The notes beneath the pieces are model-generated. The model was not told the origin of the DNA. It was given only the letters and a program-made list of their open reading frames with translations, and did not search any database. Positions 1,503-64,000 of a stretch of 64,000 nucleotides of DNA are shown here, in pieces. The position numbers were made by a program, and so were the translations under genes. The stretch's first letter is position 1; the number at the start of each line of letters is the position of its first letter. This DNA is from Eledone cirrhosa (lineage: Eukaryota), in the NCBI GenBank assembly GCA_964016885.1, contig OZ024743.1, positions 91,016,001-91,080,000 of the forward strand, in the 5' to 3' direction.

Positions 1503-4392
1503 TAACAATATATAATATGTAGTGTATCCTTACCACCAATATGGTATAAACAGTAACAATATATAATATGTAGTGTATCCTTACCACCAATATGGTATAA
1601 ACAGTAACAATATATATGTAGTGTATCCTTACCACCAATATGGTATAAACAGTAACAATATATATGTAGTGTATCCTTACCACCAATATGGTATAAACAG
1701 TAACAATATATATATGTAGTGTATCCTTACCACCAATATGGTATGAACAGTAACAATATATATGTAGTGTATCCTTACCACCAATAGGGTATAAACAGTA
1801 ACAATATATAATATGTAGTGTATCCTTACCACCAATATGGTATAAACAGTAACAATATATAATATGTAGTGTATCCTTACCACCAATATGGTATAAACAG
1901 TAACAATATATAATATGTAGTGTATCCTTACCACCAATAGGGTATAAACACTAACAATATATAATATGTAGTGTATCCTTACCACCAATATGGTATAAAC
2001 ACTAACAATATATATGTAGTGTATCCTTACCACCAATAGGGTATAAACAGTAACAATATATAATATGTAGTGTATCCTTACCACCAATATGGCATAAACA
2101 CTAACAATATATATGTAGTGTATCCTTACCACCAATATGGTATAAACAGTAACAATATATAATATGTAGTGTATCCTTACCACCAATATGGTATAAACAG
2201 TAACAATATATAATATGTAGTGTATCCTTACCACCAATATGGTATAAACACTAACAATATATATGTAGTGTATCCTTACCACCAATATGGTATAAACAGT
2301 AACAATATATATGTAGTGTATCCTTACCACCAATATGGTATAAACACTAACAATATATAATATGTAGTGTATCCTTACCACCAATAGGGTATAAACAGTA
2401 ACAATATATAATATGTAGTGTATCCTTACCACCAATATGGTATAAACACTAACAATATATATGTAGTGTATCCTTACCACCAATATGGTATAAACACTAA
2501 CAATATATAATATGTAGTGTATCCTTACCACCAATAGGGTATAAACAGTAACAATATATATGTAGTGTATCCTTACCACCAATATGGTATAAACACTAAC
2601 AATATATATGTAGTGTATCCTTACCACCAATATGGTATAAACACTAACAATATATAATATGTAGTGTATCCTTACCACCAATAGGGTATAAACAGTAACA
2701 ATATATAATATGTAGTGTATCCTTACCACCAATAGGGTATAAACAGTAACAATATATAATATGTAGTGTATCCTTACCACCAATATGGTATAAACACTAA
2801 CAATATATATGTAGTGTATCCTTACCACCAATATGGTATAAACAGTAACAATATATAATATGTAGTGTATCCTTACCACCAATATGGTATAAACACTAAC
2901 AATATATATGTAGTGTATCCTTACCACCAATATGGTATAAACAGTAACAATATATAATATGTAGTGTATCCTTACCACCAATATGGTATAAACACTAACA
3001 ATATATATGTAGTGTATCCTTACCACCAATATGGTATAAACAGTAACAATATATAATATGTAGTGTATCCTTACCACCAATATGGTATAAACAGTAACAA
3101 TATATAATATGTAGTGTATCCTTACCACCAATATGGTATAAACACTAACAATATATATGTAGTGTATCCTTACCACCAATATGGTATAAACACTAACAAT
3201 ATATAATATGTAGTGTATCCTTACCACCAATATGGTATAAACAGTAACAATATATAATATGTAGTGTATCCTTACCACCAATATGGTATAAACACTAACA
3301 ATATATAATATGTAGTGTATCCTTACCACCAATATGGTATAAACACTAACAATATATAATATGTAGTGTATCCTTACCACCAATATGGTATAAACAGTAA
3401 CAATATATATGTAGTGTATCCTTACCACCAATATGGTATAAACACTAACAATATATATGTAGTGTATCCTTACCACCAATAGGGTATAAACAGTAACAAT
3501 ATATAATATGTAGTGTATCCTTACCACCAATATGGTATAAACACTAACAATATATATGTAGTGTATCCTTACCACCAATATGGTATAAACACTAACAATA
3601 TATAATATGTAGTGTATCCTTACCACCAATAGGGTATAAACAGTAACAATATATAATATGTAGTGTATCCTTACCACCAATATGGTATAAACACTAACAA
3701 TATATATGTAGTGTATCCTTACCACCAATATGGTATAAACACTAACAATATATAATATGTAGTGTATCCTTACCACCAATAGGGTATAAACAGTAACAAT
3801 ATATAATATGTAGTGTATCCTTACCACCAATAGGGTATAAACAGTAACAATATATAATATGTAGTGTATCCTTACCACCAATATGGTATAAACACTAACA
3901 ATATATATGTAGTGTATCCTTACCACCAATATGGTATAAACAGTAACAATATATAATATGTAGTGTATCCTTACCACCAATATGGTATAAACACTAACAA
4001 TATATATGTAGTGTATCCTTACCACCAATATGGTATAAACAGTAACAATATATAATACGTAGTGTATCCTTACCACCAATATGGTATAAACACTAACAAT
4101 ATATATGTAGTGTATCCTTACCACCAATATGGTATAAACAGTAACAATATATAATATGTAGTGTATCCTTACCACCAATATGGTATAAACAGTAACAATA
4201 TATAATATGTAGTGTATCCTTACCACCAATATGGTATAAACAGTAACAATATATAATATGTAGTGTATCCTTACCACCAATATGGTATAAACACTAACAA
4301 TATATAATATGTAGTGTATCCTTACCACCAATATGGTATAAACAGTAACAATATATAATATGTAGTGTATCCTTACCACCAATAGGGTATAA
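1503..4392. repeat. Minisatellite, ~58 units of 51/48 bp, derived from the exon-4 3' end plus splice donor
   Basis: Unit taacaatata(taa)tatgtagtgtatccttaccaccaatatggtataaacag; on the minus strand each unit contains tattggtg|GTAAGG. Confidence 0.97.
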
Positions 4393-4545
4393 AAAATAGA
4401 CAGATGAGGCTGATAGTCAATACAAGATGGTGCCAATCCCGTACAAAATAACTGAGTGCAGCAAGAAGCATGGCAGCAACACTAAAGACACAGTGAAGAA
4501 TAAAGCCAAACATCATACGGTACTTTGGTCCAATAATTTCCATTA
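4377..4545 (-). CDS. SLC22-like transporter, coding exon 4 (169 bp); gene continues beyond the window start
   Basis: ctctctatag acceptor; (V)MEIIGPKYRMMFGFILHCVFSVAAMLLAALSYFVRDWHHLVLTISLICLFFIPYW(W); GTAAGG donor. Confidence 0.9.
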
Positions 4546-21522: not shown

Positions 21523-21763
21523 GTATATGATTGACGGACGCGAGAAAAGAGTACTCAATACAGAAGTAGAGTTTTAATATTCATTTGTTTTCCTTAAGGC
21601 TAAATGATGTTCGCCTGTTTATCACAGGGTTATCAGACAAGAACACTTGTCTGATGACTCTGTGATAAACAGGCGGAACTCCAGAGTTACAAGACTCACG
21701 ATTTAGCCTTAATAAAATGAATATATATACATATATATACACACACAAAAAAATATTGCTTAC

Positions 21764-22162
21764 CTCGGTAATTACTGTATGCCGTGGGTTTGAATCTTCG
21801 TAGACGTATCCATGCATGCAACCGATTTTACTCAGATTTGAGTTAGCTAGCATCTCTTTGGAGCTTATATTATAGTCATGTTCGATGAGAAGCTGGTCAA
21901 CATCGTTAGGTATGTATTGCTTGCAGCTGTCTCCTGTATTACTGACCACAAGACTATAAGACCTCTGGCTAATATTTCTACCGAGTGAAGATGTGTCATT
22001 GCTTGGCGGAATGTTGCAGTAGAATTGCTGATCGGTCATTACAAACACCATACTAAACAGTACCCAGGACGATATCATAACTGGGAAACATATGAGAAGA
22101 AACTGCACCTTCTGATATCGCCCGAATTGTCCAAGTCTTTCTAATACGTCGTCAAAATGCAT
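21764..22162 (-). CDS. SLC22 / organic cation transporter-like MFS protein, coding exon 1
   Basis: MHFDDVLERLGQFGRYQK..., TM1 and a Cys-containing extracellular loop ending ...HTVITE, followed by a GTAAG donor at 21763; typical SLC22 N-terminus. Confidence 0.92.
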
Positions 22163-22835
22163 CTTCTGTTTTTTGTTCGTGTTTATCCTGTTAAAAATAT
22201 CACAAATATTTACATATATATCAATTATAGCACAAATTCGTTTTCAAGAGAGAAGAAAGTGAGAAGTTGTGGCAATCATGGGTTTTATAAGGATTTTCTT
22301 TTCAAAAGACTTTTTAAAAAACCATCAGAGTTTGTTTACATAATAGATATGAATAAATACACAAATTCCTTTTTTACGAGTGGGAAAAATGGAAACTTGT
22401 AGCATTCATACGTTTCATAAGGTTTTATATGTGCATCTTTATATGTGCATCTTACCACTGTTATGAAAAATATCCATATCCCTTGTTACGTGTAGCGAAA
22501 ATAGGAAGAAGTGATATTCATGCATATGCACAAAGGTATCGACATTTCTGGCTCATTGGTTATACTTAGCTTAAACTGAAACCTGATTGTGTGCTTAGTT
22601 ATGAGAAAACATCACCGCACTACAGCATAAGCTCGGATGATCAGAATAATTTTCGATTTGCAATAATCCTGCTAAGCTTTGTTTTGTCATTGTGCTCACA
22701 TCGCTATTTTTAGAATTTTCTTTCACGTTAAAAGCAAGGGAATTAACTATAGAGAAATTTGAGAGTTATCTTCCTTAGTGTGATAACGAAATTATAATAC
22801 ATATCTGTATGCAGCTATGCCTGAAGCTAAATCCT

Positions 22836-23982: not shown

Positions 23983-26900
23983 CTACAGGCTTATATAGAG
24001 AGAAGGCCCATTCACTCGGGCCATTTTCGCCACTTTCACCCACCTTTCATAAAACTTGCTGGGGTACAGCACCTCTCTCTCCATCCTGATTCTTCTTCCA
24101 AAGTGGTATTTGAAAAAAAGAATCAGTTGTTGGCCGGAGAGAAAGGTGTCTGACCTCAGCCCTTTCAACCTTGTCCACCATACAACCTCTTTCGCCATAG
24201 CTATCACACAAAGGAAAACCGCATCTCCTTCGTTTTTGAAGGAGGGTGGCGGTTTGATCATGACAACGGATTCGGTGGTCAACTGGATTGGTCCCACCCG
24301 CGACAATAGTCGTTCTACATAGCCCCACAGGTCAGTGACGCCCGGGCAGTGTATGAATGCGTGCGCGACGGTTTCTTCGTCTCGCACGCACCTCGGACAG
24401 ATCTTTTTTGCAGGGTCCCTGCCCGGGCGCCCATTTCTGTAGAGCTTGTCTCGAACTGGTAGAGCTCCTCGGTAGCACTGCCAGGCCAGGGACTTTTGGA
24501 AGTTATCCATCGGTCCCGGGCGGAAGGTCCTACCGAACAGACTGGCCAGTTCATCTTCCTCTACGCCTAGAGTTTCACCGAGCGCGTCGTCGCACTTGCT
24601 GCGGACCAACCCTCTATAGAATGACGAAGTGGAGTCTCCACTGATCGCCGGGTCCGCCTGCCAGAGGGCTGTGAGCGCCTGAGCACATTCGATGTGCCAG
24701 TCGCCCATTTTCCTCGGTCTTTGCTTGACCCAGGACTGCAGCTCGGTCAGCGAGACGAGTCGTGGGAAGGCTCGCCTCACGAACGGGGCCCACACCGGTT
24801 GTCCGATGAGGAATACGTAGAGATGCCGCAGCCTGAGCGCGTGTTTGCGCATCGTCAACCACGGCATCCCCAGCCCTCCGTTAGAAGGGTGTTGGCAGCA
24901 GATGGATCTTCTCACCAAAGGAGCCCGCCTCTTCCAAAGGAATCGGAAGAGCGCGCGCTCCATTTTGGCGAGCGTTTTGGCTGGACAAGGCACGACGGTC
25001 AAGCGGTAGTAGATGGCGGACGCTATAAAAGTGTTCGCCACCTCCGCTCGACCTTTCAAGGATAGTTTGCACTCGGCCCACTTCTGGGTGAGTGCAAACA
25101 CCTTGGCCGTCACTTCGTTCCAGTTCTTCTCCACCTGGAGGTCCGGACCAAACCAGACCCCGAGCAGCTTTACCGGTCCTTCCGTCCAGCGTCCGACGAC
25201 GCCATTGGAAGGCATCGGTCTGCCTCTCCACGACCCGAGTTGCAAACCGATGGACTTGTCCCGGTTCAGCTTCGCTCCTGTGACACTTTCGTATTCCTTC
25301 AGTAAGGTGCCGACTTCCTCGATTTGCGAGGCGCTCGACACCATTACTGTCACGTCGTCGGCGTAGGCCGACGCCGCTTTCCGCAGTCCCGGTTCCAGAG
25401 GGATGCCCTGCAATAGCTCCAGCTTCCGCAGTAGTGGCTCGAGAGTCAGTACGTACAGAAGGGAGGAGAGAGGGCATCCCTGTCGAATGGATCGCGTAAT
25501 ATGGAACGGCTCCGAGAGGTAGCCGTTCACCTTGACCCTTGAGCACATGTTGCTGTTGTGCATTGCAGCAATCCAGCCCCTGAACACGGGTCCGAAGCCT
25601 GCCGCCTCGAGCACCGCATCCAGGTAACGATGGTCAACCCTATCGAAAGCCTTAGACTGATCCAAGTTGATCAGGGCTCCACCGAAGCCGGGTTTACATC
25701 CTACCCTCTCTATGATGTATCGCATGAGGTGGAGGTTGTCGTGTATGGACCTGGTCGGGATTGCGCATGTCTGCGCTTCTCCCACCAGGTTCTCGACGAC
25801 AAGCGCCAGCCTCTTTGCCAACACCTTGGCCAAAATCTGTAACTCTGTGTTTAGCAGAGTTATGGGCCGGAAGTTGCCTATGTCATCCCCCTTATTCTCG
25901 TCCTTCCTGATTAGTGTGACCACGCCCCCGGTTACAGAACTGGGAATTCTCCCGTTCTGTTGCCAGTTGCAGTAGACCGCTTCCAGGAGACCGGAGAATA
26001 AGTCCGACATTGCTACGTAAAATTCGTAGGGTAGACCGTCGAGACCTGGAGATTTGCGTTTGCCGCATTGGCTCAGCGCGTCCCCTATCTCAGTGGCTGA
26101 AATCGGCTTTTCGCAGAACTTTGCCTCGCTGTCCGAGAGTCGCGGTAGGCCGTCGAGGTATGGACCGAAATCCATAGCCTCTCCCGGCGCGCCGCTCCCC
26201 CCGAACAGCCGAGCAAAGTGCCGCTGAAAATCCGCACACATCTGCTTCGGCTCACGTATCACGCGTCCGTTTTGGTCCTTCAAAGACCGAATCGTGAACT
26301 TGTTGCCACTTTTTGCCTCCGTCACTCGGACCCAGCTAACAGCTTTGGCTCCCTCGTTTCCTAGAGCACGTATTTTGCTTCTGACAACGCAGCCCTCGTG
26401 CTTTGCGTCGAAGAACTGGTCCAAGGCCGTTCTCGTTGCTAGCACGCTGGCTACGTTGCCACTTCTAATTGCCTCTTCTACTTTATCTACCAGTTCTTTC
26501 TCGGTTCTATTTCTATCTAACGCTAATTCTTTACTAAAAACTATCGAGTCTAATCTAACTGCCCTCTTGAGAGAGTACCACCATCTGTTGTTGACAATGG
26601 CCCCTGTCAAGTGCTGTTTAACTAAAGTGCTAATCCGTCTACTGTAGGCTTTGCTTGTCGGTAACGACAAGTTCAGCTTCCAGTAGCCGGGTCCTTGTCT
26701 ATGGGTTCTATCAAGGTTGGCCATGCAGGTCACTAGTTTGTGATCTGAATAGGCAACCATGAACATTTGTGGACAGCTTAACATGTTCCTATCCTTATTT
26801 CTAACTAGAACCCTATCTAGGTACGATCTAGATGTTCCGCTACGATTACTCCACGTCCACAGTGGCGCAGTCGGAAAATCTAGTCGATATCTATCGGCCA

Positions 26901-27420
26901 GGTCAAATCGGTCGATTAACTGTTTGAGGCTGTTACACCCCCCTTTATCGGGACATGCTCCCACATAGTCCCAACGTGCATCTAGGATTCCATTCCAGTC
27001 CCCCACTAAAAGCAAGGAGCGGGACGTTCCCAGAAAAGTCTCTAGACGTTTGAAGAAGTCTGGCCGCGGTGTCCCGGGTGGGGCATATGCGGCCACCAGC
27101 CTGAAGGCTCCACCTTCACTAACGTCAACGTCTAGGACCACAAGTCGACCCTCCGGGTCCAGATGTACCGTCTGTGTTACGAGGCCCAGGTGTTTCCGCA
27201 GCAAAACGGCAACTCCACCCCCACCCCCCGGTTGACAGAGAGATGCGTAGATCTCAAAGTCATCGAAGATGGGGTCCAGCTGTCGCTCGCCGTGGATCCT
27301 GGACTCGCAAATGGCTACCACATCCATACTGTGCGACCTGAGGTCGTTTAAGAGTTTGCCCTGTTTCCAGGGCATCCCCAGGCCGCGTACGTTCACACAT
27401 CCAACTCTTATATTGGCCAT
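23983..27420 (-). CDS. ORF2: APE endonuclease + reverse transcriptase + C-terminal Cys/His motif (intact, 1145 aa)
   Basis: NVRG, CESR, GDWN, SYLDR, SDH; SPGLDG, DQSKAFDRV, IRQGCPLS, AYADD; CPRC..ETVAHAFIHC. Confidence 0.95.
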   Translation of the reverse strand: MANIRVGCVNVRGLGMPWKQGKLLNDLRSHSMDVVAICESRIHGERQLDPIFDDFEIYASLCQPGGGGGVAVLLRKHLGLVTQTVHLDPEGRLVVLDVDVSEGGAFRLVAAYAPPGTPRPDFFKRLETFLGTSRSLLLVGDWNGILDARWDYVGACPDKGGCNSLKQLIDRFDLADRYRLDFPTAPLWTWSNRSGTSRSYLDRVLVRNKDRNMLSCPQMFMVAYSDHKLVTCMANLDRTHRQGPGYWKLNLSLPTSKAYSRRISTLVKQHLTGAIVNNRWWYSLKRAVRLDSIVFSKELALDRNRTEKELVDKVEEAIRSGNVASVLATRTALDQFFDAKHEGCVVRSKIRALGNEGAKAVSWVRVTEAKSGNKFTIRSLKDQNGRVIREPKQMCADFQRHFARLFGGSGAPGEAMDFGPYLDGLPRLSDSEAKFCEKPISATEIGDALSQCGKRKSPGLDGLPYEFYVAMSDLFSGLLEAVYCNWQQNGRIPSSVTGGVVTLIRKDENKGDDIGNFRPITLLNTELQILAKVLAKRLALVVENLVGEAQTCAIPTRSIHDNLHLMRYIIERVGCKPGFGGALINLDQSKAFDRVDHRYLDAVLEAAGFGPVFRGWIAAMHNSNMCSRVKVNGYLSEPFHITRSIRQGCPLSSLLYVLTLEPLLRKLELLQGIPLEPGLRKAASAYADDVTVMVSSASQIEEVGTLLKEYESVTGAKLNRDKSIGLQLGSWRGRPMPSNGVVGRWTEGPVKLLGVWFGPDLQVEKNWNEVTAKVFALTQKWAECKLSLKGRAEVANTFIASAIYYRLTVVPCPAKTLAKMERALFRFLWKRRAPLVRRSICCQHPSNGGLGMPWLTMRKHALRLRHLYVFLIGQPVWAPFVRRAFPRLVSLTELQSWVKQRPRKMGDWHIECAQALTALWQADPAISGDSTSSFYRGLVRSKCDDALGETLGVEEDELASLFGRTFRPGPMDNFQKSLAWQCYRGALPVRDKLYRNGRPGRDPAKKICPRCVRDEETVAHAFIHCPGVTDLWGYVERLLSRVGPIQLTTESVVMIKPPPSFKNEGDAVFLCVIAMAKEVVWWTRLKGLRSDTFLSGQQLILFFKYHFGRRIRMEREVLYPSKFYERWVKVAKMARVNGPSLYISL

Positions 27421-27453
27421 GTTGGTGCTGAAAAGTTAAAAGAGGAAAAGAGA

Positions 27454-35818: not shown

Positions 35819-36046
35819 TATATATATATATATATATATGAAAATATAGAAATTAATGTGAGCAAGGAGCCAACAGTATTTCATAATATATAAGTAACTA
35901 TAACGTCAAAATGGAAAAAAAATTAACGTAAGATGTGGGAAAATAATTCAAACTCAATTCAAAAGAAATCAAGACAGAGATTTTATCAACCCCAGACCTA
36001 CGTATCCAAGCACACATAGTGCCCCTATAACCATCTCCAAGAAAAT

Positions 36047-38192
36047 ATGCTGACAAGAATCGACCTCAATACCTCCTTGAAGAACATTCCTATCCCACCA
36101 AGGAAACAGTACCTAAAAGCCCTCATTAGACGGACTGATGAATTCATCAAACGAATTAGATGGAGATCGTTCTTTTTCGACCACCCTGATGTAGCATCTA
36201 CCAATAATGAGATGTACGGCTTTAAATCTAATAAGGCTCCACCCACCAACAGCCTACTTGAACCATTTGAAGAAGACCTCTTTCAAATGATCAAAAATAT
36301 TAAATTCAGGAAAGTCAACATACCTTTCCAAACGGACTTAAAGGAGAAACTTCTGAAAATGAAAAGTTCCCCGTACCTCCACGTCCCTTCAGACAAAACA
36401 AAAAAGACTTATGCGGTTATTCCTGACACCTACAACAAGCTTGCTGATAATGCCATCACAGCAAAGTACAAAAAAGTTGATGACACTACTTTGACTGAAA
36501 CAAACTTAGCCGGAAAGAAGATCGCCACTTCCCTTAAACTGGAAGACCGGACAGAACCTCTGAGGGTAAAGTCCCCACACTTCACCCTGAAAGACCACAA
36601 GAACAACTTTGATAATAAACCGTCGGTCCGGCTGATTAACCCGACCAAGTCTGACATAGGATCCGTCAGTAAGAAGATCTTGGACAGGATTCTACCTAGA
36701 CTACGTGCTGCCTCACCCCTCCCACTCTGGAATAGGACATCCGAGACAATCACATGGTTCCGGGATTTGCCCAACAAAAGCAACACCCGTTTCCTGCAGC
36801 TAGACATCGAGGACTACTACGCCTCCATATCAGAGAGCCTGCCGATTGACGCGATTAACTTCGCCAGGAACTTTACCACTATCACCGAAGCCGAGCAGGA
36901 TGTGATCCTCCATGCACGTAAGACTTTTCTTTACCATGACAGATCCCACTGGATCAACAAAAAATCTGAGACCCCCTTCGACGTTAGCATGGGTGCTAGC
37001 GACTCGGCTGAAATAAGTGACCTTGTGGGTCTGTTCATCCTCCACAGGTTGAAGACCCTCTTCACAGGCCTCTCCGGCGGTCTCTACCGAGATGACGGCC
37101 TCTTTGCCCTCCACAAAATCAACTCCAGGACCACGGATGGGTTCAGGAAAAACCTTTACACCTTCTTTAAAAACTTAGGCCTTAGGATTACCTTAGATTC
37201 GAACTTAACTAAAGCTAACTTCCTAGACGTTACCCTCGACTTTGAAACTTCCCTTTACTACCCGTACCACAAACCTAATGAATCCCTTAGATATATAGAC
37301 GTTAATTCTAACCACCCCCAAAATATATTAGACAACCTAGTGAAAAGTGTCTCCATTAGGATATCTAGCCTCGCCGCCAATGAAGATATCTTTAGAGCAG
37401 CAGCCCCCTATTACAACGAGGCCCTGGCCCGCAGCGGCTTTAGAGATAAGATCACCTACCTTAGTATAGCCCCACGCCCACCCAGGAAGAATAGGCGAAG
37501 GCACATTAGCTGGTACAACCCCCCCCCCCTTCAACCGCGAAGTTTCAACACCTGTAGCTAAAATTTTCTTCACTCTCTTACAAAAACACTTCCCCACCCA
37601 ACATAGGTACTATACAATCCTTAATAAGAATACCATCAGACTCTCCTACTCTACCACACCTAATCTAGCTAAGAACTAAGCCAACAATAACGTCAATAAG
37701 CTAAATAAGTCTACTTTTTCCGAAGCCCATCCAGCAACCGATGGCAATTGCAATTGCCCTGATAAGACTACTTGCCCCCTCAACAACAACTGTCTAAAAA
37801 AAGATCTCGTCTATATATGCGATGTACTCTCAGGCCCCGATGAAAAAAGAAACTCGTACATCGGGATGACTTCTAACAGTTTTAAGACTCGCTGGTACGC
37901 CCACACACATTCGTTCCGGCGCCCAGACAAATCTAACCAAACAACACTCGCCGCCCACATCTGGCACCTTAAAAGGAACTCCATCCCCTTCAAGACCCAA
38001 TGGAGACTACTCCAGAGAGCGCGATCTTACACGGGAGGACATAATTGCTGTGACCTCTGTATCTCCGAGAGCTATGAGATTCTATTCGCCAAAGGCCCTC
38101 TCCTCAACAAGATCTCGGAACACTCCCCTAATTGCATGCACAAGAACTATGCAAATTACAAAAACTACAGACCCACCCGGCCCCCCGATTGA
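36047..38192 (+). pseudogene. PLE RT + GIY-YIG endonuclease (frameshift in the C-run at ~37520, TAA at ~37677)
   Basis: SLKNIP, RLINP, LDIEDYYASI, MGASDS, LYRDD, FLDV; CNCPDKTTCPLNNNC, LVY...YIGMT, CCDLCISE...CMH. Confidence 0.9.
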
Positions 38193-50600: not shown

Positions 50601-51107
50601 ATAATAATAATAATACAAGGACGATTTGTTAAGCCTTCATTACGTTTATTGATTGGTGGCGCGCATTTGGCTAGCCAATAAAACATGTTAATACTTGAAA
50701 TAAACCCTACTGTATAGCTTCTCCGTGTTATTCTTCATTCCTTCATTATATAAATCATAGCAATGAGAGAAGGCACATAATAAATTGTCAGATAACAGGG
50801 AATAAAGTACCTATTATCTGACACAATTTATTATGTGCTTTCTCCTATTGCTATGATTTATAATGAGCTCGGTCTCTCTTCCTTGAAGTCCCTTGATCAT
50901 AGCGGACTATTGTGAGTTTCTAGCTCTATATTTTAATAATTTGATATATATATATATTGAGTATATTTTGGTTGTTTACCGACACCTCACTATGCAGATT
51001 GGAGCACTCGACGAAGTACGCAGGTTGTTTTGTTCACTCCGGAGTAATGTAAAATAATTAAGTCAAATATGTAAGATTTGGCTTCGTTTATTATAAATTA
51101 TAGATAT

Positions 51108-51162
51108 ACTGCTATATATATTTCGGTGACAGCCATCATTGGTTGTGACCTCTTCAGGCAGT
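51108..51162 (-). ncRNA. Type I hammerhead (left arm of inverted repeat 51064-51356)
   Basis: Reverse complement of 51254-51308; same family as 39996-40050. Confidence 0.8.
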
Positions 51163-51253
51163 CCGAATTGGTGTGGGAAAGACAGGTACACATGTTGACG
51201 GAATAAAACACACTTCAACAACATGTGTTCCTGTCTTTCCCACACCAATTCGG

Positions 51254-51308
51254 ACTGCCTGAAGAGGTCACAACCAATGATGGCTGTCACCGAAATATAT
51301 ATAGCAGT
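51254..51308 (+). ncRNA. Type I hammerhead (right arm)
   Basis: actgc-CTGAAGA-ggtcacaacca/tggctgtcacc-GAAA-tatata-TA-gcagt. Confidence 0.8.
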
Positions 51309-51778
51309 ATATCTATAGGTAATTTATAATAAACGAAGCCAAATTTTACATATTTGTATATAAAAGAAAAACCCCAAAACGTAATGTACACTCCTTCAGA
51401 TACAGACAACGACGGAGAATACTAATGTTTTTTTCTAAAAAAAGTTTAAGGCAACATAAAACCACTTGAGCCATGCTAGCGAAGATGAAGCGCTGAAACA
51501 GTTAAATACAGTTCAGTAATCAGCATCACCTGATATCTCAGCAAGATGAGCAATAACAAAAAAATTGCGATGAGAAACCTAGTTCCCCAAATATTTTGAA
51601 TGTCACTAATAAAATTTAGTTCACTGATAAATTATGGTATTTCACTCTTGTTACGTTCAACTGGAGAGCAACCAGCACCTCTTGCGGTGGTGGAATGAAA
51701 GTTGTATTAATAAATAGGAACAACCATTTGCTTTCATTGTAAACAGATGTCGCAATTATATATATATATATATATATA

Positions 51779-53300
51779 TTTATTCCAATTTCTAATTTCT
51801 GCCGGACCGGCAACCGCTCTTTCAAACCAGTTCCTGTACACAGCTAAGTATTCTATAAGTCTCTAGCTGTGTCATTCTCGATAAAAGCACTGGATATGTA
51901 GTCCTGATGATTTCTAACGAGAATGAAACGCGTAGATTACTTCCCTTGCTTTTATCGAGAATCTAATTGTAATACGTGACGTATTCTATTCTATAGCGAT
52001 TAGGTCTTCAAAATGTTTATTATAAACATACAGAATATTTTCGAATATTCTATGTCTATATTCACATATATATCGCTATTTCAGAGCATTTATTCCAATT
52101 TCTAATTTCTGCCGGACCGGCAACCGCTCTTTCAAACCAGTTCCTGTACACAGCTAAGTATTCTATAAGTCTCTAGCTGTGTCATTCTCGATAAAAGCAC
52201 TGGATATGTAGTCCTGATGATTTCTAACGAGAATGAAACGCGTAGATTACTTCCCTTGCTTTTATCGAGAATCTAATTGTAATACGTGACGTATTCTATT
52301 CTATAGCGATTAGGTCTTCAAAATGTTTATTATAAACATACAGAATATTTTCGAATATTCTATGTCTATATTCACATATATATCGCTATTTCAGAGCATT
52401 TATTCCAATTTCTAATTTCTGCCGGACCGGCAACCGCTCTTTCAAACCAGTTCCTGTACACAGCTAAGTATTCTATAAGTCTCTAGCTGTGTCATTCTCG
52501 ATAAAAGCACTGGATATGTAGTCCTGATGATTTCTAACGAGAATGAAACGCGTAGATTACTTCCCTTGCTTTTATCGAGAATCTAATTGTAATACGTGAC
52601 GTATTCTATTCTATAGCGATTAGGTCTTCAAAATGTTTATTATAAACATACAGAATATTTTCGAATATTCTATGTCTATATTCACATATATATCGCTATT
52701 TCAGAGCATTTATTCCAATTTCTAATTTCTGCCGGACCGGCAACCGCTCTTTCAAACCAGTTCCTGTACACAGCTAAGTATTCTATAAGTCTCTAGCTGT
52801 GTCATTCTCGATAAAAGCACTGGATATGTAGTCCTGATGATTTCTAACGAGAATGAAACGCGTAGATTACTTCCCTTGCTTTTATCGAGAATCTAATTGT
52901 AATACGTGACGTATTCTATTCTATAGCGATTAGGTCTTCAAAATGTTTATTATAAACATACAGAATATTTTCGAATATTCTATGTCTATATTCACATATA
53001 TATCGCTATTTCAGAGCATTTATTCCAATTTCTAATTTCTGCCGGACCGGCAACCGCTCTTTCAAACCAGTTCCTGTACACAGCTAAGTATTCTATAAGT
53101 CTCTAGCTGTGTCATTCTCGATAAAAGCACTGGATATGTAGTCCTGATGATTTCTAACGAGAATGAAACGCGTAGATTACTTCCCTTGCTTTTATCGAGA
53201 ATCTAATTGTAATACGTGACGTATTCTATTCTATAGCGATTAGGTCTTCAAAATGTTTATTATAAACATACAGAATATTTTCGAATATTCTATGTCTATA

Positions 53301-53305
<5 letters not shown>
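51779..53305 (+). repeat. Tandem array of ~4.9 apparently identical 310 bp units, each with a hammerhead (non-LTR retrozyme-like)
   Basis: tattccaatt recurs at 51781, 52091, 52401, 52711 and 53021; (TA)n on both sides. Confidence 0.95.
51874..51962 (+). ncRNA. Type I hammerhead with extended helix I (repeated at +310, +620, +930, +1240)
   Basis: attctcgataaaagca..gtagtc-CTGATGA-tttctaacgagaat-GAAA-cgcg-TA-gattac..tgcttttatcgagaat; predicted cleavage after 51934. Confidence 0.88.
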
Positions 53306-53345
<40 letters not shown>

Positions 53346-62152: not shown

Positions 62153-64000
62153 ATATTTCTATTTATTTGCCACCAGGGCATCAAAGATTGGGACAAATAC
62201 AAAGGGGGGAGTTTACATACATTTAAAAAGACGTGTAAAAAACATATAACAAATTAAATTTAACAATCGATGTCCTCAATAGGGAGGGGCGTTGACATGG
62301 GTCGCACCCCCCCCCCCCGAAAAAATGTGCAACCCTCCTCTTCAGGAGCACAAAGAGCGGGTGCTTCCTTCCTCTTCTCATTCTTCTCCTCTCTCCCCTA
62401 CAGGCTGATATAGAGAGAAGGCCCATTCACTCGGGCCATTCTCGCTACTTTCACCCATCTTTCATAAAACTTGCTGCGGTAGAGCACCTCTCTCTCCATT
62501 CTGATCCTTCTTCTAAAGTGGTACTTGAAAAAAAAGACCAGTTGTTGGCCGGAGAGAAAGGTGTCTGACCTCAGCCCTTTCAACCTTGTCCACCATACAA
62601 CTTCTTTCGCCATGGCTATCACACAGAGGAAAACCGCCTCTCCTTCGTTTTTGAAAGGGGGAGGCGGTTTGATTGTGACAATGTTCTCGGTGGTCAACCG
62701 GATTGGTCCCACCCGCGACAGTAGTCGTTCTACATAGCCCCACAGGTCAGCAACGCCCGTGCAGTGTAAGAATGCGTGTGCGACGGTTTCCTCGTCACGC
62801 ACGCATCTTGGACAGATCTTCTTCGAGGGGTCCCTACTCGGGCGCCCGTGTCTGTAGAGCTTGTCCCGAACGGGTAGAGCTCCTCGGTAACATTGCCAAG
62901 CCAGGGACTTTTGGAAGTTGTCCATCGGTCCCGGGCCAAACGTCCTACCGAACAGACTGGCCAGGTCGTCTTCCTCCATGCCCAGAGCCTCTCCGAGAGC
63001 GTCGTCGCACTTACTGCGCACCAACCCTCTATAGAATGTTGAGGTTGAGTCTCCACTGATTGCCGGATCCGCTTGCCAGAGGGCCGTGAGCGCCTGGGCA
63101 CATTCAATGTGCCAGTCGCCCACTTTTCTCGGTCTTTGCTTGACCCAGGATTGCAGCTCGGTGAGTGAGACGAGTCTCGGAAAGGCTCGCCTCACAAACA
63201 GGGGCCACACCGGCTGACCGGTGAGGAATACCTGGAGGTGCCGTAGCCTTAATGCGTGTCTACGCATCATCAGCCACGGCATCCCCAGCCCTCCGTTCGA
63301 AGGGTGTTGACAGCAGATGGATCTTCTCACCAAAGGAGCCCGCTTCTTCCAAAGAAATCGGAAGAGCGCGCGCTCCATTTTGGCGAGTGTTTTCTCTGGG
63401 CAAGGCACGACGGTCAAGCGGTAGTAGATGACGGACGCTATATAAGCGTTCGCCACCTCCGCTCGACCTTTCAGGGATAGTTTGCACTCGGCCCACTTCT
63501 GGGCGAGTGCAAACACCTTGCCCGTTACCTCGTCCCAGTTTTTCTCCACCTGGAGGTCCGGTCCGAACCAGACCCCGAGCAGCTTCACCGGTCCCTCCGT
63601 CCAGCGTCCGACGATGCCGTCGGAGGGCATCGTTTTGCCCCTCCACGTCCCGAGTTGCAAACCGACGGACTTGTCCCGGTTCAGCTTGGCTCCTGTGAAC
63701 CTTTCATATTCCTCCAGTAAGGTGCTGATCTGCCCGATTTCCGAGGCGCACGACACCATTACTGTCACGTCATCGGCGTAGGCCGACACCGCTTTCCGCA
63801 ATCCCGGTTCCAAGGGGATGCCCTGCAACAGCTCCAGCTTCCGCAGTAGTGGCTCGAGAGCCAGCACATACAGGAGGGAGGAGAGAGGGCATCCCTGTCG
63901 AATGGATCGCGTGATTTGGAACGGCTCCGAGAGGTAGCCATTCACCTTGACCCTCGAGCAGGTGTTGCTGCTGTGCATTGCAGCAATCCAGCCCCTGAAA
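62153..64000 (-). mobile_element. Second Tx1-family copy (ORF2 C-terminal half plus 3' UTR), runs off the window
   Basis: ORF 62398-63978 is closely similar to the C-terminal half of 23983-27420; AYADD, CPRC..H....C. Confidence 0.93.

Follow-up and report, generated by a model that had tools for sequence, protein, structure and literature searches.

Hammerhead retrozyme arrays of Eledone cirrhosa are probably inserted at (TA)n tracts by a Penelope-like enzyme that starts twice on one RNA

The closest described relatives of the array reported here are the metazoan non-LTR retrozymes (Cervera and de la Pena 2020, PMC7229834). The portions of that paper used here describe tandem non-coding units of 150-450 bp with a GC content <50% and a type I hammerhead, in genomes that also carry Penelope-like elements (PLEs); all of this applies to the present locus. 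In the same portions, circular forms of related retrozymes are seen to accumulate in coral, mussel and axolotl, and mobilisation by PLEs is proposed, not demonstrated. As regards cleavage, 1/9 Xenopus retrozyme dimers cleaved in vitro in the part of the study drawn on here (Li, Clavereau and Pollet 2026, bioRxiv 10.64898/2026.07.22.740005).

PLE insertions leave a recognizable pattern. The sections of Craig et al. 2021 considered here describe an inverted 5'-truncated copy with a tail of 30-40 bp at one end, as well as (TA)n targeting and hammerheads in the Hydra clade. Naiad elements, like Hydra, have a (TA)n microsatellite target, according to the excerpts at hand. In the available parts of a biochemical study, a purified PLE starts reverse transcription (RT) at two adjacent internal sites that bracket the tail, uses these start sites in vitro without strand difference, and cuts and extends both strands; a dimer was predicted (Frangieh et al. 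2024, PMC11167929). There, the purified anole PLE did not require hammerhead cleavage and used mainly unprocessed RNA as its substrate.

We analysed a window of 64,000 nucleotides of the E. cirrhosa genome (assembly GCA_964016885.1, contig OZ024743.1, positions 91,016,001 to 91,080,000). It contains a tandem array with an exact 310-bp period and 0 mismatches (Table 1). An earlier note, made from the letters of the window, had described five identical 310-bp units between (TA)n tracts: identity, period and TA flanks stand, the whole-unit count does not, as there are 4.93 units. The GC content of the units is 34.5%, and the window scan found no reading frame of at least 200 aa in the array, which is thus non-coding. 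Unit position 1 is set at 51935, the first base past the predicted cut. In this numbering the array is a single arm, truncated at its 5' end at unit position 154-156 and ending in 3' at unit 130, hereafter site A. The retrozyme arrays adjoin (TA)n directly and have no LTR structure. An allele with an empty site was not seen for this insertion in four sequencing runs, only one of which covered any flank.

Table 1 Features of the array in the window
Feature	Positions	Strand	Basis
Single-arm retrozyme array, 4.93 identical 310-bp units	51778..53304	+	periodicity and end mapping
Left part of (TA)n target tract	51757..51779		sequence
Right part of (TA)n target tract	53305..53342		sequence
3' junction, where unit 130 (site A) meets (TA)n; most frequent A end (23/50 A ends in one mapped set)	53292..53313	+	end mapping
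35-nt 'tail' from site A (unit 130) to site B (unit 165), drawn in the first unit containing the tail	52065..52099	+	end positions; PMC11167929, in part, for the interpretation
First type I hammerhead domain, repeated every 310 bp; predicted cut after 51934	51874..51962	+	core, helices and folding
Second hammerhead domain, predicted cut after 52244	52184..52272	+	pattern
Third hammerhead domain, predicted cut after 52554	52494..52582	+	pattern
Fourth hammerhead domain, predicted cut after 52864	52804..52892	+	pattern
Fifth hammerhead domain, predicted cut after 53174	53114..53202	+	pattern

Other features of the window deserve mention. To the left of the array, at a distance of 400 bp, is a near-perfect palindrome (51064-51356) with arms of 99 and 37 nt that are 97-99% complementary. 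Its right arm shows, by inspection, a motif resembling a hammerhead near 51258, whose stem III is TA-palindromic, and the palindrome likely consists of two PLE ends placed head-to-head. The Hydra-type PLE at 36020-38192 (+) is broken near its 3' end; it has a frame of 513 aa and a CxCx5C linker. The frame at 21584-22243 (-), about 30 kb from the array, which lies upstream of it, contains what we take to be exon 1 of an organic cation transporter of the SLC22 type. Two long frames, at 23986-27435 (-) and 62401-63999 (-), of 1150 and 533 aa, are presumably LINE-like, judging by their motifs. Finally, an AT-rich tandem array of ~2.9 kb with periods of 51/99/150 bp is found at 1503-4393.

The hammerhead core CUGAUGA...GAAA...UA is present in every unit (unit positions 280-286 and 301-310), giving five cores at 51904+310n, the first at 51904-51910. 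Stem I comprises 6 proximal base pairs, an internal loop and a 16-bp distal helix in which 51874-51889 pairs with 51947-51962. Stem II has 4 bp with a closing U.U mismatch, a feature absent from the earlier note, and stem III is reduced to one pair with a palindromic CGCG loop. Similar oddities are known in axolotl: HHR_Amex1 has a one-pair stem III with a palindromic tetraloop, HHR_Amex2 has a U.U at the base of helix II, and the axolotl retrozyme hammerheads with these features act as dimers (PMC7229834, relevant passages). For the 89-nt domain, the folding energy is -31.3 kcal/mol (z = -6.4), and 0/200 shuffles are equally stable. The complete type I core per unit, the helix I extension past the internal loop, the tiny palindromic stem III and the expected cut position 51934+310n, where GUA ends at the predicted site 51934, had all been claimed before and are borne out here. 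As far as sequence can tell, it is confirmed that every unit has a complete type I hammerhead, predicted to cut itself. The Rfam scan suggested by the earlier note had a different outcome: no hammerhead was detected in the window at the gathering score, nor at E<=10 on 51700-52420, though the motif is real.

Older relatives of the unit, at ~70-80% identity, have the same layout with different stems; the core is decayed or variant in several. Their hammerheads show a double-sided change in 16/28 predicted pairs (7 domains, related and not independent), and the covarying stems that the earlier note expected in other copies are therefore found among these relatives.

Insertions were mapped in the window and at 110 loci on contig C1, of which 10 were the first core matches; a further 40 were selected through an A or B junction, and 60 through the exact B junction. 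The mapping left out the divergent loci L082 and L090, ignored fragments <70 bp, skipped an inner duplicated junction in L041 and counted L099 as two insertions. Two arms are observed in 97/110 insertions, and they are head-to-head in 97/97. The others (13/110) have one arm only (7 A, 6 B), two of them being cut by an N gap or by the fetched edge. Arms end at two sites: A ends are mostly at unit 130 or 139 and B ends mostly at 165, each varying by several bases. One arm ends at A and the other at B in 95/95 pairs with both ends visible (AA = 0, BB = 0); in 2/97 pairs the far end lies outside the fetched DNA. Most loci were chosen through one end, and only the partner end is then a free result; pairs picked by the core alone are A+B in 9/9. 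Within the window and the ten core-chosen loci, 20/20 3' ends are in (TA)n. Several of the older relatives are also head-to-head and end, by inspection, at a site equivalent to B. The single arm of the window is thus supported as the minority form of a head-to-head, two-primer insertion, which the earlier note overlooked.

The 5' ends behave differently from the 3' ends. Their distribution along the unit does not depart from uniform (p=0.24, n=93); 1/93 lies within 5 nt of the cut, where 3 are expected. Nor are they enriched at the other arm's site (6/102 and 7/101, ~5 expected). Arm junctions are locus-specific, with a mean microhomology of 2.24 nt (n=59) versus 0.75 at random and inserts in 38/97. 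Arms measure 1488 bp on average and 8459 bp at most, with up to 27 units; 183/204 are longer than one unit, and their lengths are indistinguishable from exponential (KS p=0.08, n=204). Between the ends of the mapped insertions, no ORF was found, and the RT plus GIY-YIG frame of an autonomous PLE is absent. In one case, a GC-rich foreign piece of 272 bp (L054:4499-4770) separates the two arms and possibly results from a template switch to another RNA.

Long inverted arms with TA flanks resemble, we presume, terminal inverted repeats at a TA target. One might then think of a DNA transposon of the foldback type whose arms are tandem repeats, or of an artefact of assembly in which reads are folded back on themselves. 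Yet the two ends differ, being always A versus B and each variable by several bases, single-arm 5'-truncated copies exist, and junctions are unlike from locus to locus. Moreover, an independent run contains the same haplotypes and TA junctions. Both versions are largely refuted and we give them almost no credence.

In the genome of 3.0 Gb, a pattern search finds the exact core 4256 times. The relaxed core has 9535+9281 = 18,816 matches genome-wide versus 13+11 = 24 for the reversed control. The most frequent B junction has 1013 occurrences genome-wide, and looser junction patterns match 747 B and 633 A junctions on the forward strand, those counted in reverse being redundant with them. From these counts and the mean arm length, we estimate ~1,500-2,000 insertions in the genome. 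The earlier note had predicted further arrays with variable unit number and phase, and the relaxed cores and the 110 mapped insertions agree with this. The retrozyme family is very young, since unit-private divergence is 0.036% per base (83 differences in 740 units, any assembly error included). The reading of the array as a young non-LTR retrozyme, proposed in the same note, is supported by this low divergence, by the dispersed arrays and by the type I hammerhead in each unit.

Head-to-head arms, a one-ended tail of ~35 nt and a (TA)n target together make the signature of a PLE, which argues for Penelope mobilisation. The earlier suggestion that a Penelope-like RT mobilises the array gains support from this end signature (inverted arms, A+B pairing, (TA)n). 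The offset of 35 nt between the retrozyme ends is within the range of PLE tails, 30-40 bp. By analogy with the purified enzyme, we infer that the 35-nt tail segment may lie between two RT initiation sites. A Penelope-type enzyme likely copies the RNA from both broken DNA ends at once. We therefore think it probable that the element is a non-autonomous hammerhead retroelement, a non-LTR retrozyme, and that a Penelope-like enzyme inserts it into (TA)n by priming two times on the same RNA, which is probably circular and 310 nt long.

The proposed mechanism would proceed in five steps. First, read-through transcripts would cleave themselves, probably as hammerhead dimers, and the monomers would be ligated into circles. 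Second, a Penelope RT-endonuclease dimer, likeliest from the TA-targeting Hydra clade, would cut both strands of (TA)n. Third, the two DNA ends would prime at different sites, one at A and one at B, which are separated by 35 nt and located 130-165 nt from the ribozyme cut. The 35-nt offset matches the one-ended tail of inverted PLE insertions, and this tail equals the gap between the two internal RT start sites of the purified PLE (PMC11167929, in the part consulted). Fourth, each RT would copy several rounds and then fall off. Fifth, the two cDNA ends would be joined via microhomology or a short filler. A single arm, as in the window, would arise when one primer alone is extended.

The nature of the template can be approached through haplotypes. 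Both arms carry one haplotype in 62/64 insertions (0.154 expected), although this agreement could also reflect one active source locus per cell. The 80 insertions of at least 3 full units contain 27 haplotypes, 18 of them singletons. Units differ at 2.7 positions between loci versus 0.22 within a locus, a 12-fold contrast. Because haplotypes are fixed per insertion and loci contrast in this way, new variants appear to pass through one unit and then multiply. Since priming is 130-165 nt from the cut, a linear monomer could not give multi-unit arms without jumps. The one RNA template is thus probably a circle, as the circular-RNA and rolling-circle step put forward in the earlier note would have it.

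An uncleaved linear multimer transcribed from a parent array could also serve as template, with the same Penelope machinery and priming sites and no circle; the hammerhead fold would then be kept for another role, for instance protein binding or 5' processing. At L098:1309-7701, reading from the 3' end gives H1,H1,H2 in both arms, and this shared switch fits a mixed multimer rather than a single monomer circle. Of all loci, it is the most informative about how the template is built. Minority variants recur within the arrays L050, L053, L054 and L084, arms do not stall significantly at whole units (11 observed vs 7.2 expected, p=0.11), and the main use of unprocessed RNA by the purified enzyme in vitro (PMC11167929, partial source) points the same way. 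Folding of the monomer circle predicts stem II to be ~14% populated and stem III unpopulated. However, daughters of a linear multimer cannot exceed their parent in length, and arms reach 27 units at the very low divergence of the family. The 18 singleton haplotypes, each fixed across one insertion, need passage through a single unit, and the related retrozymes mentioned above do form circles (PMC7229834, in part). We regard a linear multimer as the general template as unlikely, and we rate the circle as the usual template, probably not the sole one.

It has also been discussed that such arrays grow later as minisatellites (Li et al. 2026, 10.64898/2026.07.22.740005, in the part used). A short terminal Penelope fragment would be inserted first and then expand at the DNA level by unequal crossover. 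The few arrays with minority variants repeated at a distance are what local duplication or conversion gives. But both arms are multi-unit and homogeneous with a random 5' phase, most arms exceed one unit, and units within a locus are far closer to each other than to those of other loci. Ribozyme-breaking substitutions, moreover, are never locus-wide, and amplification of DNA would not filter them. Growth after insertion appears very improbable to us. It is likely that the arrays are made at insertion, by a Penelope RT priming twice on one RNA.

The filter just mentioned emerges when variants shared by a whole locus are compared with those private to one unit. At constrained hammerhead positions, the 30 distinct locus-wide variants include 5 tolerated and 0 breaking substitutions, whereas the 83 unit-private changes include 3 tolerated and 15 breaking ones (Fisher p=0.0017; breaking vs all others, p=0.010). 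Two locus-wide insertions add a bulge in stem I. The remaining locus-wide changes of the domain affect the variable core position 7 or loop 2, or convert U.U to A-U. As the transmitted substitutions spare the core and the pairs, the ribozyme appears to be needed for transmission. Four of the 5 tolerated changes are A-to-G, with A276G on four haplotype backgrounds, and RNA editing in the long stem could yield these four without selection.

Locus-wide A-to-G changes recur in stem I at unit positions 2, 20, 259 and 276, on several backgrounds (L059, L064, L066, L068, L071 and others). In L066, an A switches to G partway along one arm. Possibly these changes stem from A-to-I editing of the template RNA, which was then copied back into the genome.

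We then considered which PLEs might provide the enzyme. Hydra-type PLEs are abundant and young in the genome (59,704 candidates, 150 scored). One candidate helper, L176, has an intact 709-aa ORF (<3 kb) with DKT, a CxCx5C linker and GIY-YIG at its C terminus, and a TA target. A Pfam scan of this ORF gave no match; its atlas neighbours carry HTH_animal, GIY-YIG and RVT_1. On a comparison of motifs with the published description, L176 would qualify as a Hydra-clade PLE.

Head-to-head pairs of the Hydra-type family have one short and one long end in 5/5, with an end offset of 88 nt. In the young Hydra-type PLE at L171-L184, a hammerhead-like motif whose core is variant (A at the second base) is located ~65 nt before the short end. 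A sister hammerhead element (L187-L216) is dispersed, with 9393 matches, and agrees with the core of the unit at 26/28 bases. Its two TA ends are 68 nt apart and it has one short and one long end in 4/4 pairs. No ORF was found within 1.5 kb upstream in the one copy translated, and the element is probably the 3' end of a PLE. Neither the Hydra-type family nor the sister element was retained as direct partner: the end offsets are family-specific (88, 68 and, for the unit, 35 nt), and neither has ends resembling those of the unit in the loci and copies compared. The unit has no similarity to the 3' end of the Hydra family in the 30 copies examined. In loci L001-L170 and the window, no PLE end resembling the unit was found; similarity was confined to older relatives and a sister hammerhead core. 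This comparison covered few of many PLE families.

Other tandem elements were encountered. L067:3194-4594 is a young tandem array of a 616-bp unit in a TA tract, in which a pattern search found no hammerhead. L188:2132-3027 is a young array of a 467-bp unit in a TA tract, with a canonical hammerhead. Loci L037, L040, L044 and L106 represent a further hammerhead family.

Near-identical units, with 65-100% of the unit's words, were found in 20 runs (17 studies, 18 coded organisms), none recorded as RNA. Seven distinct runs were examined. Run X5 contains the full haplotype mix and part of the flank, and X8 contains short pieces. Runs X1, X2, X3, X10 and X15, under five organism labels, each hold a single contig of 340 letters that covers one unit and an overlap and shows 0-2 differences. 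Such one-unit contigs would be expected if an assembler collapsed trace DNA, since the haplotypes have similar frequencies, and trace DNA from this repeat-rich genome is a more likely explanation than horizontal spread. We judge it quite improbable that a viroid-like 310-nt RNA circle is now spreading between animal species and is written into each host by its own Penelope dimer, rolling from both ends of a broken (TA)n. The loose ends in X8 were considered as a native low-copy insertion and rejected; they start exactly at the GANTC cut position 52270, which we take to be an enzyme cut site, and are better explained as proximity-ligation chimeras.

The footprint of Penelope is thus seen on retrozyme arrays, with two RT start sites used once each per insertion. 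This bears on how animal retrozymes move, on the role of the hammerhead in the Penelope cycle and on the origin of the structure made of an inverted copy plus a tail. With its 310 nt and two mapped start sites, the unit can serve as substrate in the in vitro PLE assay that already exists, where circle and multimer can be compared directly.

Two priming events on one RNA are also known from LINE-1. In twin priming, one RNA is primed by both target strands, synthesis of the first cDNA ends at the second primer and the head-to-head junction shows microhomology. Here, in contrast, 5' ends show no excess at the site of the other arm, and the two sites of priming are internal and fixed.

Hydra-clade PLEs share with the retrozyme the inverted 5'-truncated copy, the one-end tail, (TA)n, the hammerhead and two internal RT starts (Craig et al. 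2021; Arkhipova et al. 2013; Frangieh et al. 2024, each in part). Unlike them, the retrozyme has no ORF and its 310-bp unit is repeated up to 27 times per arm; strict pairing of one A with one B is unstated in the passages on Hydra-clade PLEs considered here. The non-autonomous Chlamys PLEs such as MRC1, from a green alga, mostly lack hammerheads and have a 3' end like that of the autonomous partner (Craig et al. 2021, in the part used). For the metazoan retrozymes, the sections of Cervera and de la Pena 2020 (PMC7229834) used here demonstrate cleavage and circles, which in E. cirrhosa are predicted from sequence. The words 'inverted', 'tail', 'head-to-head' and 'microsatellite' are absent from a word search of its main text, supplement aside. 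Li, Clavereau and Pollet 2026 (10.64898/2026.07.22.740005), in the portion available, connect PLEs with tandem hammerhead repeats on the grounds of co-occurrence and of pLTR homology; no pLTR homology of the 310-bp unit was found in the loci examined. These authors favour later local amplification, whereas our data favour arrays made at insertion, and a word search of their main text, supplements aside, found no analysis of insertion ends. A literature search, beyond which most subscription papers lay, found no description of a two-arm A+B retrozyme architecture. The family described here belongs, on the features assessed from sequence, to the known non-LTR retrozymes, and the new information consists of the end rule, A with B, and of the signal of selection on the ribozyme.
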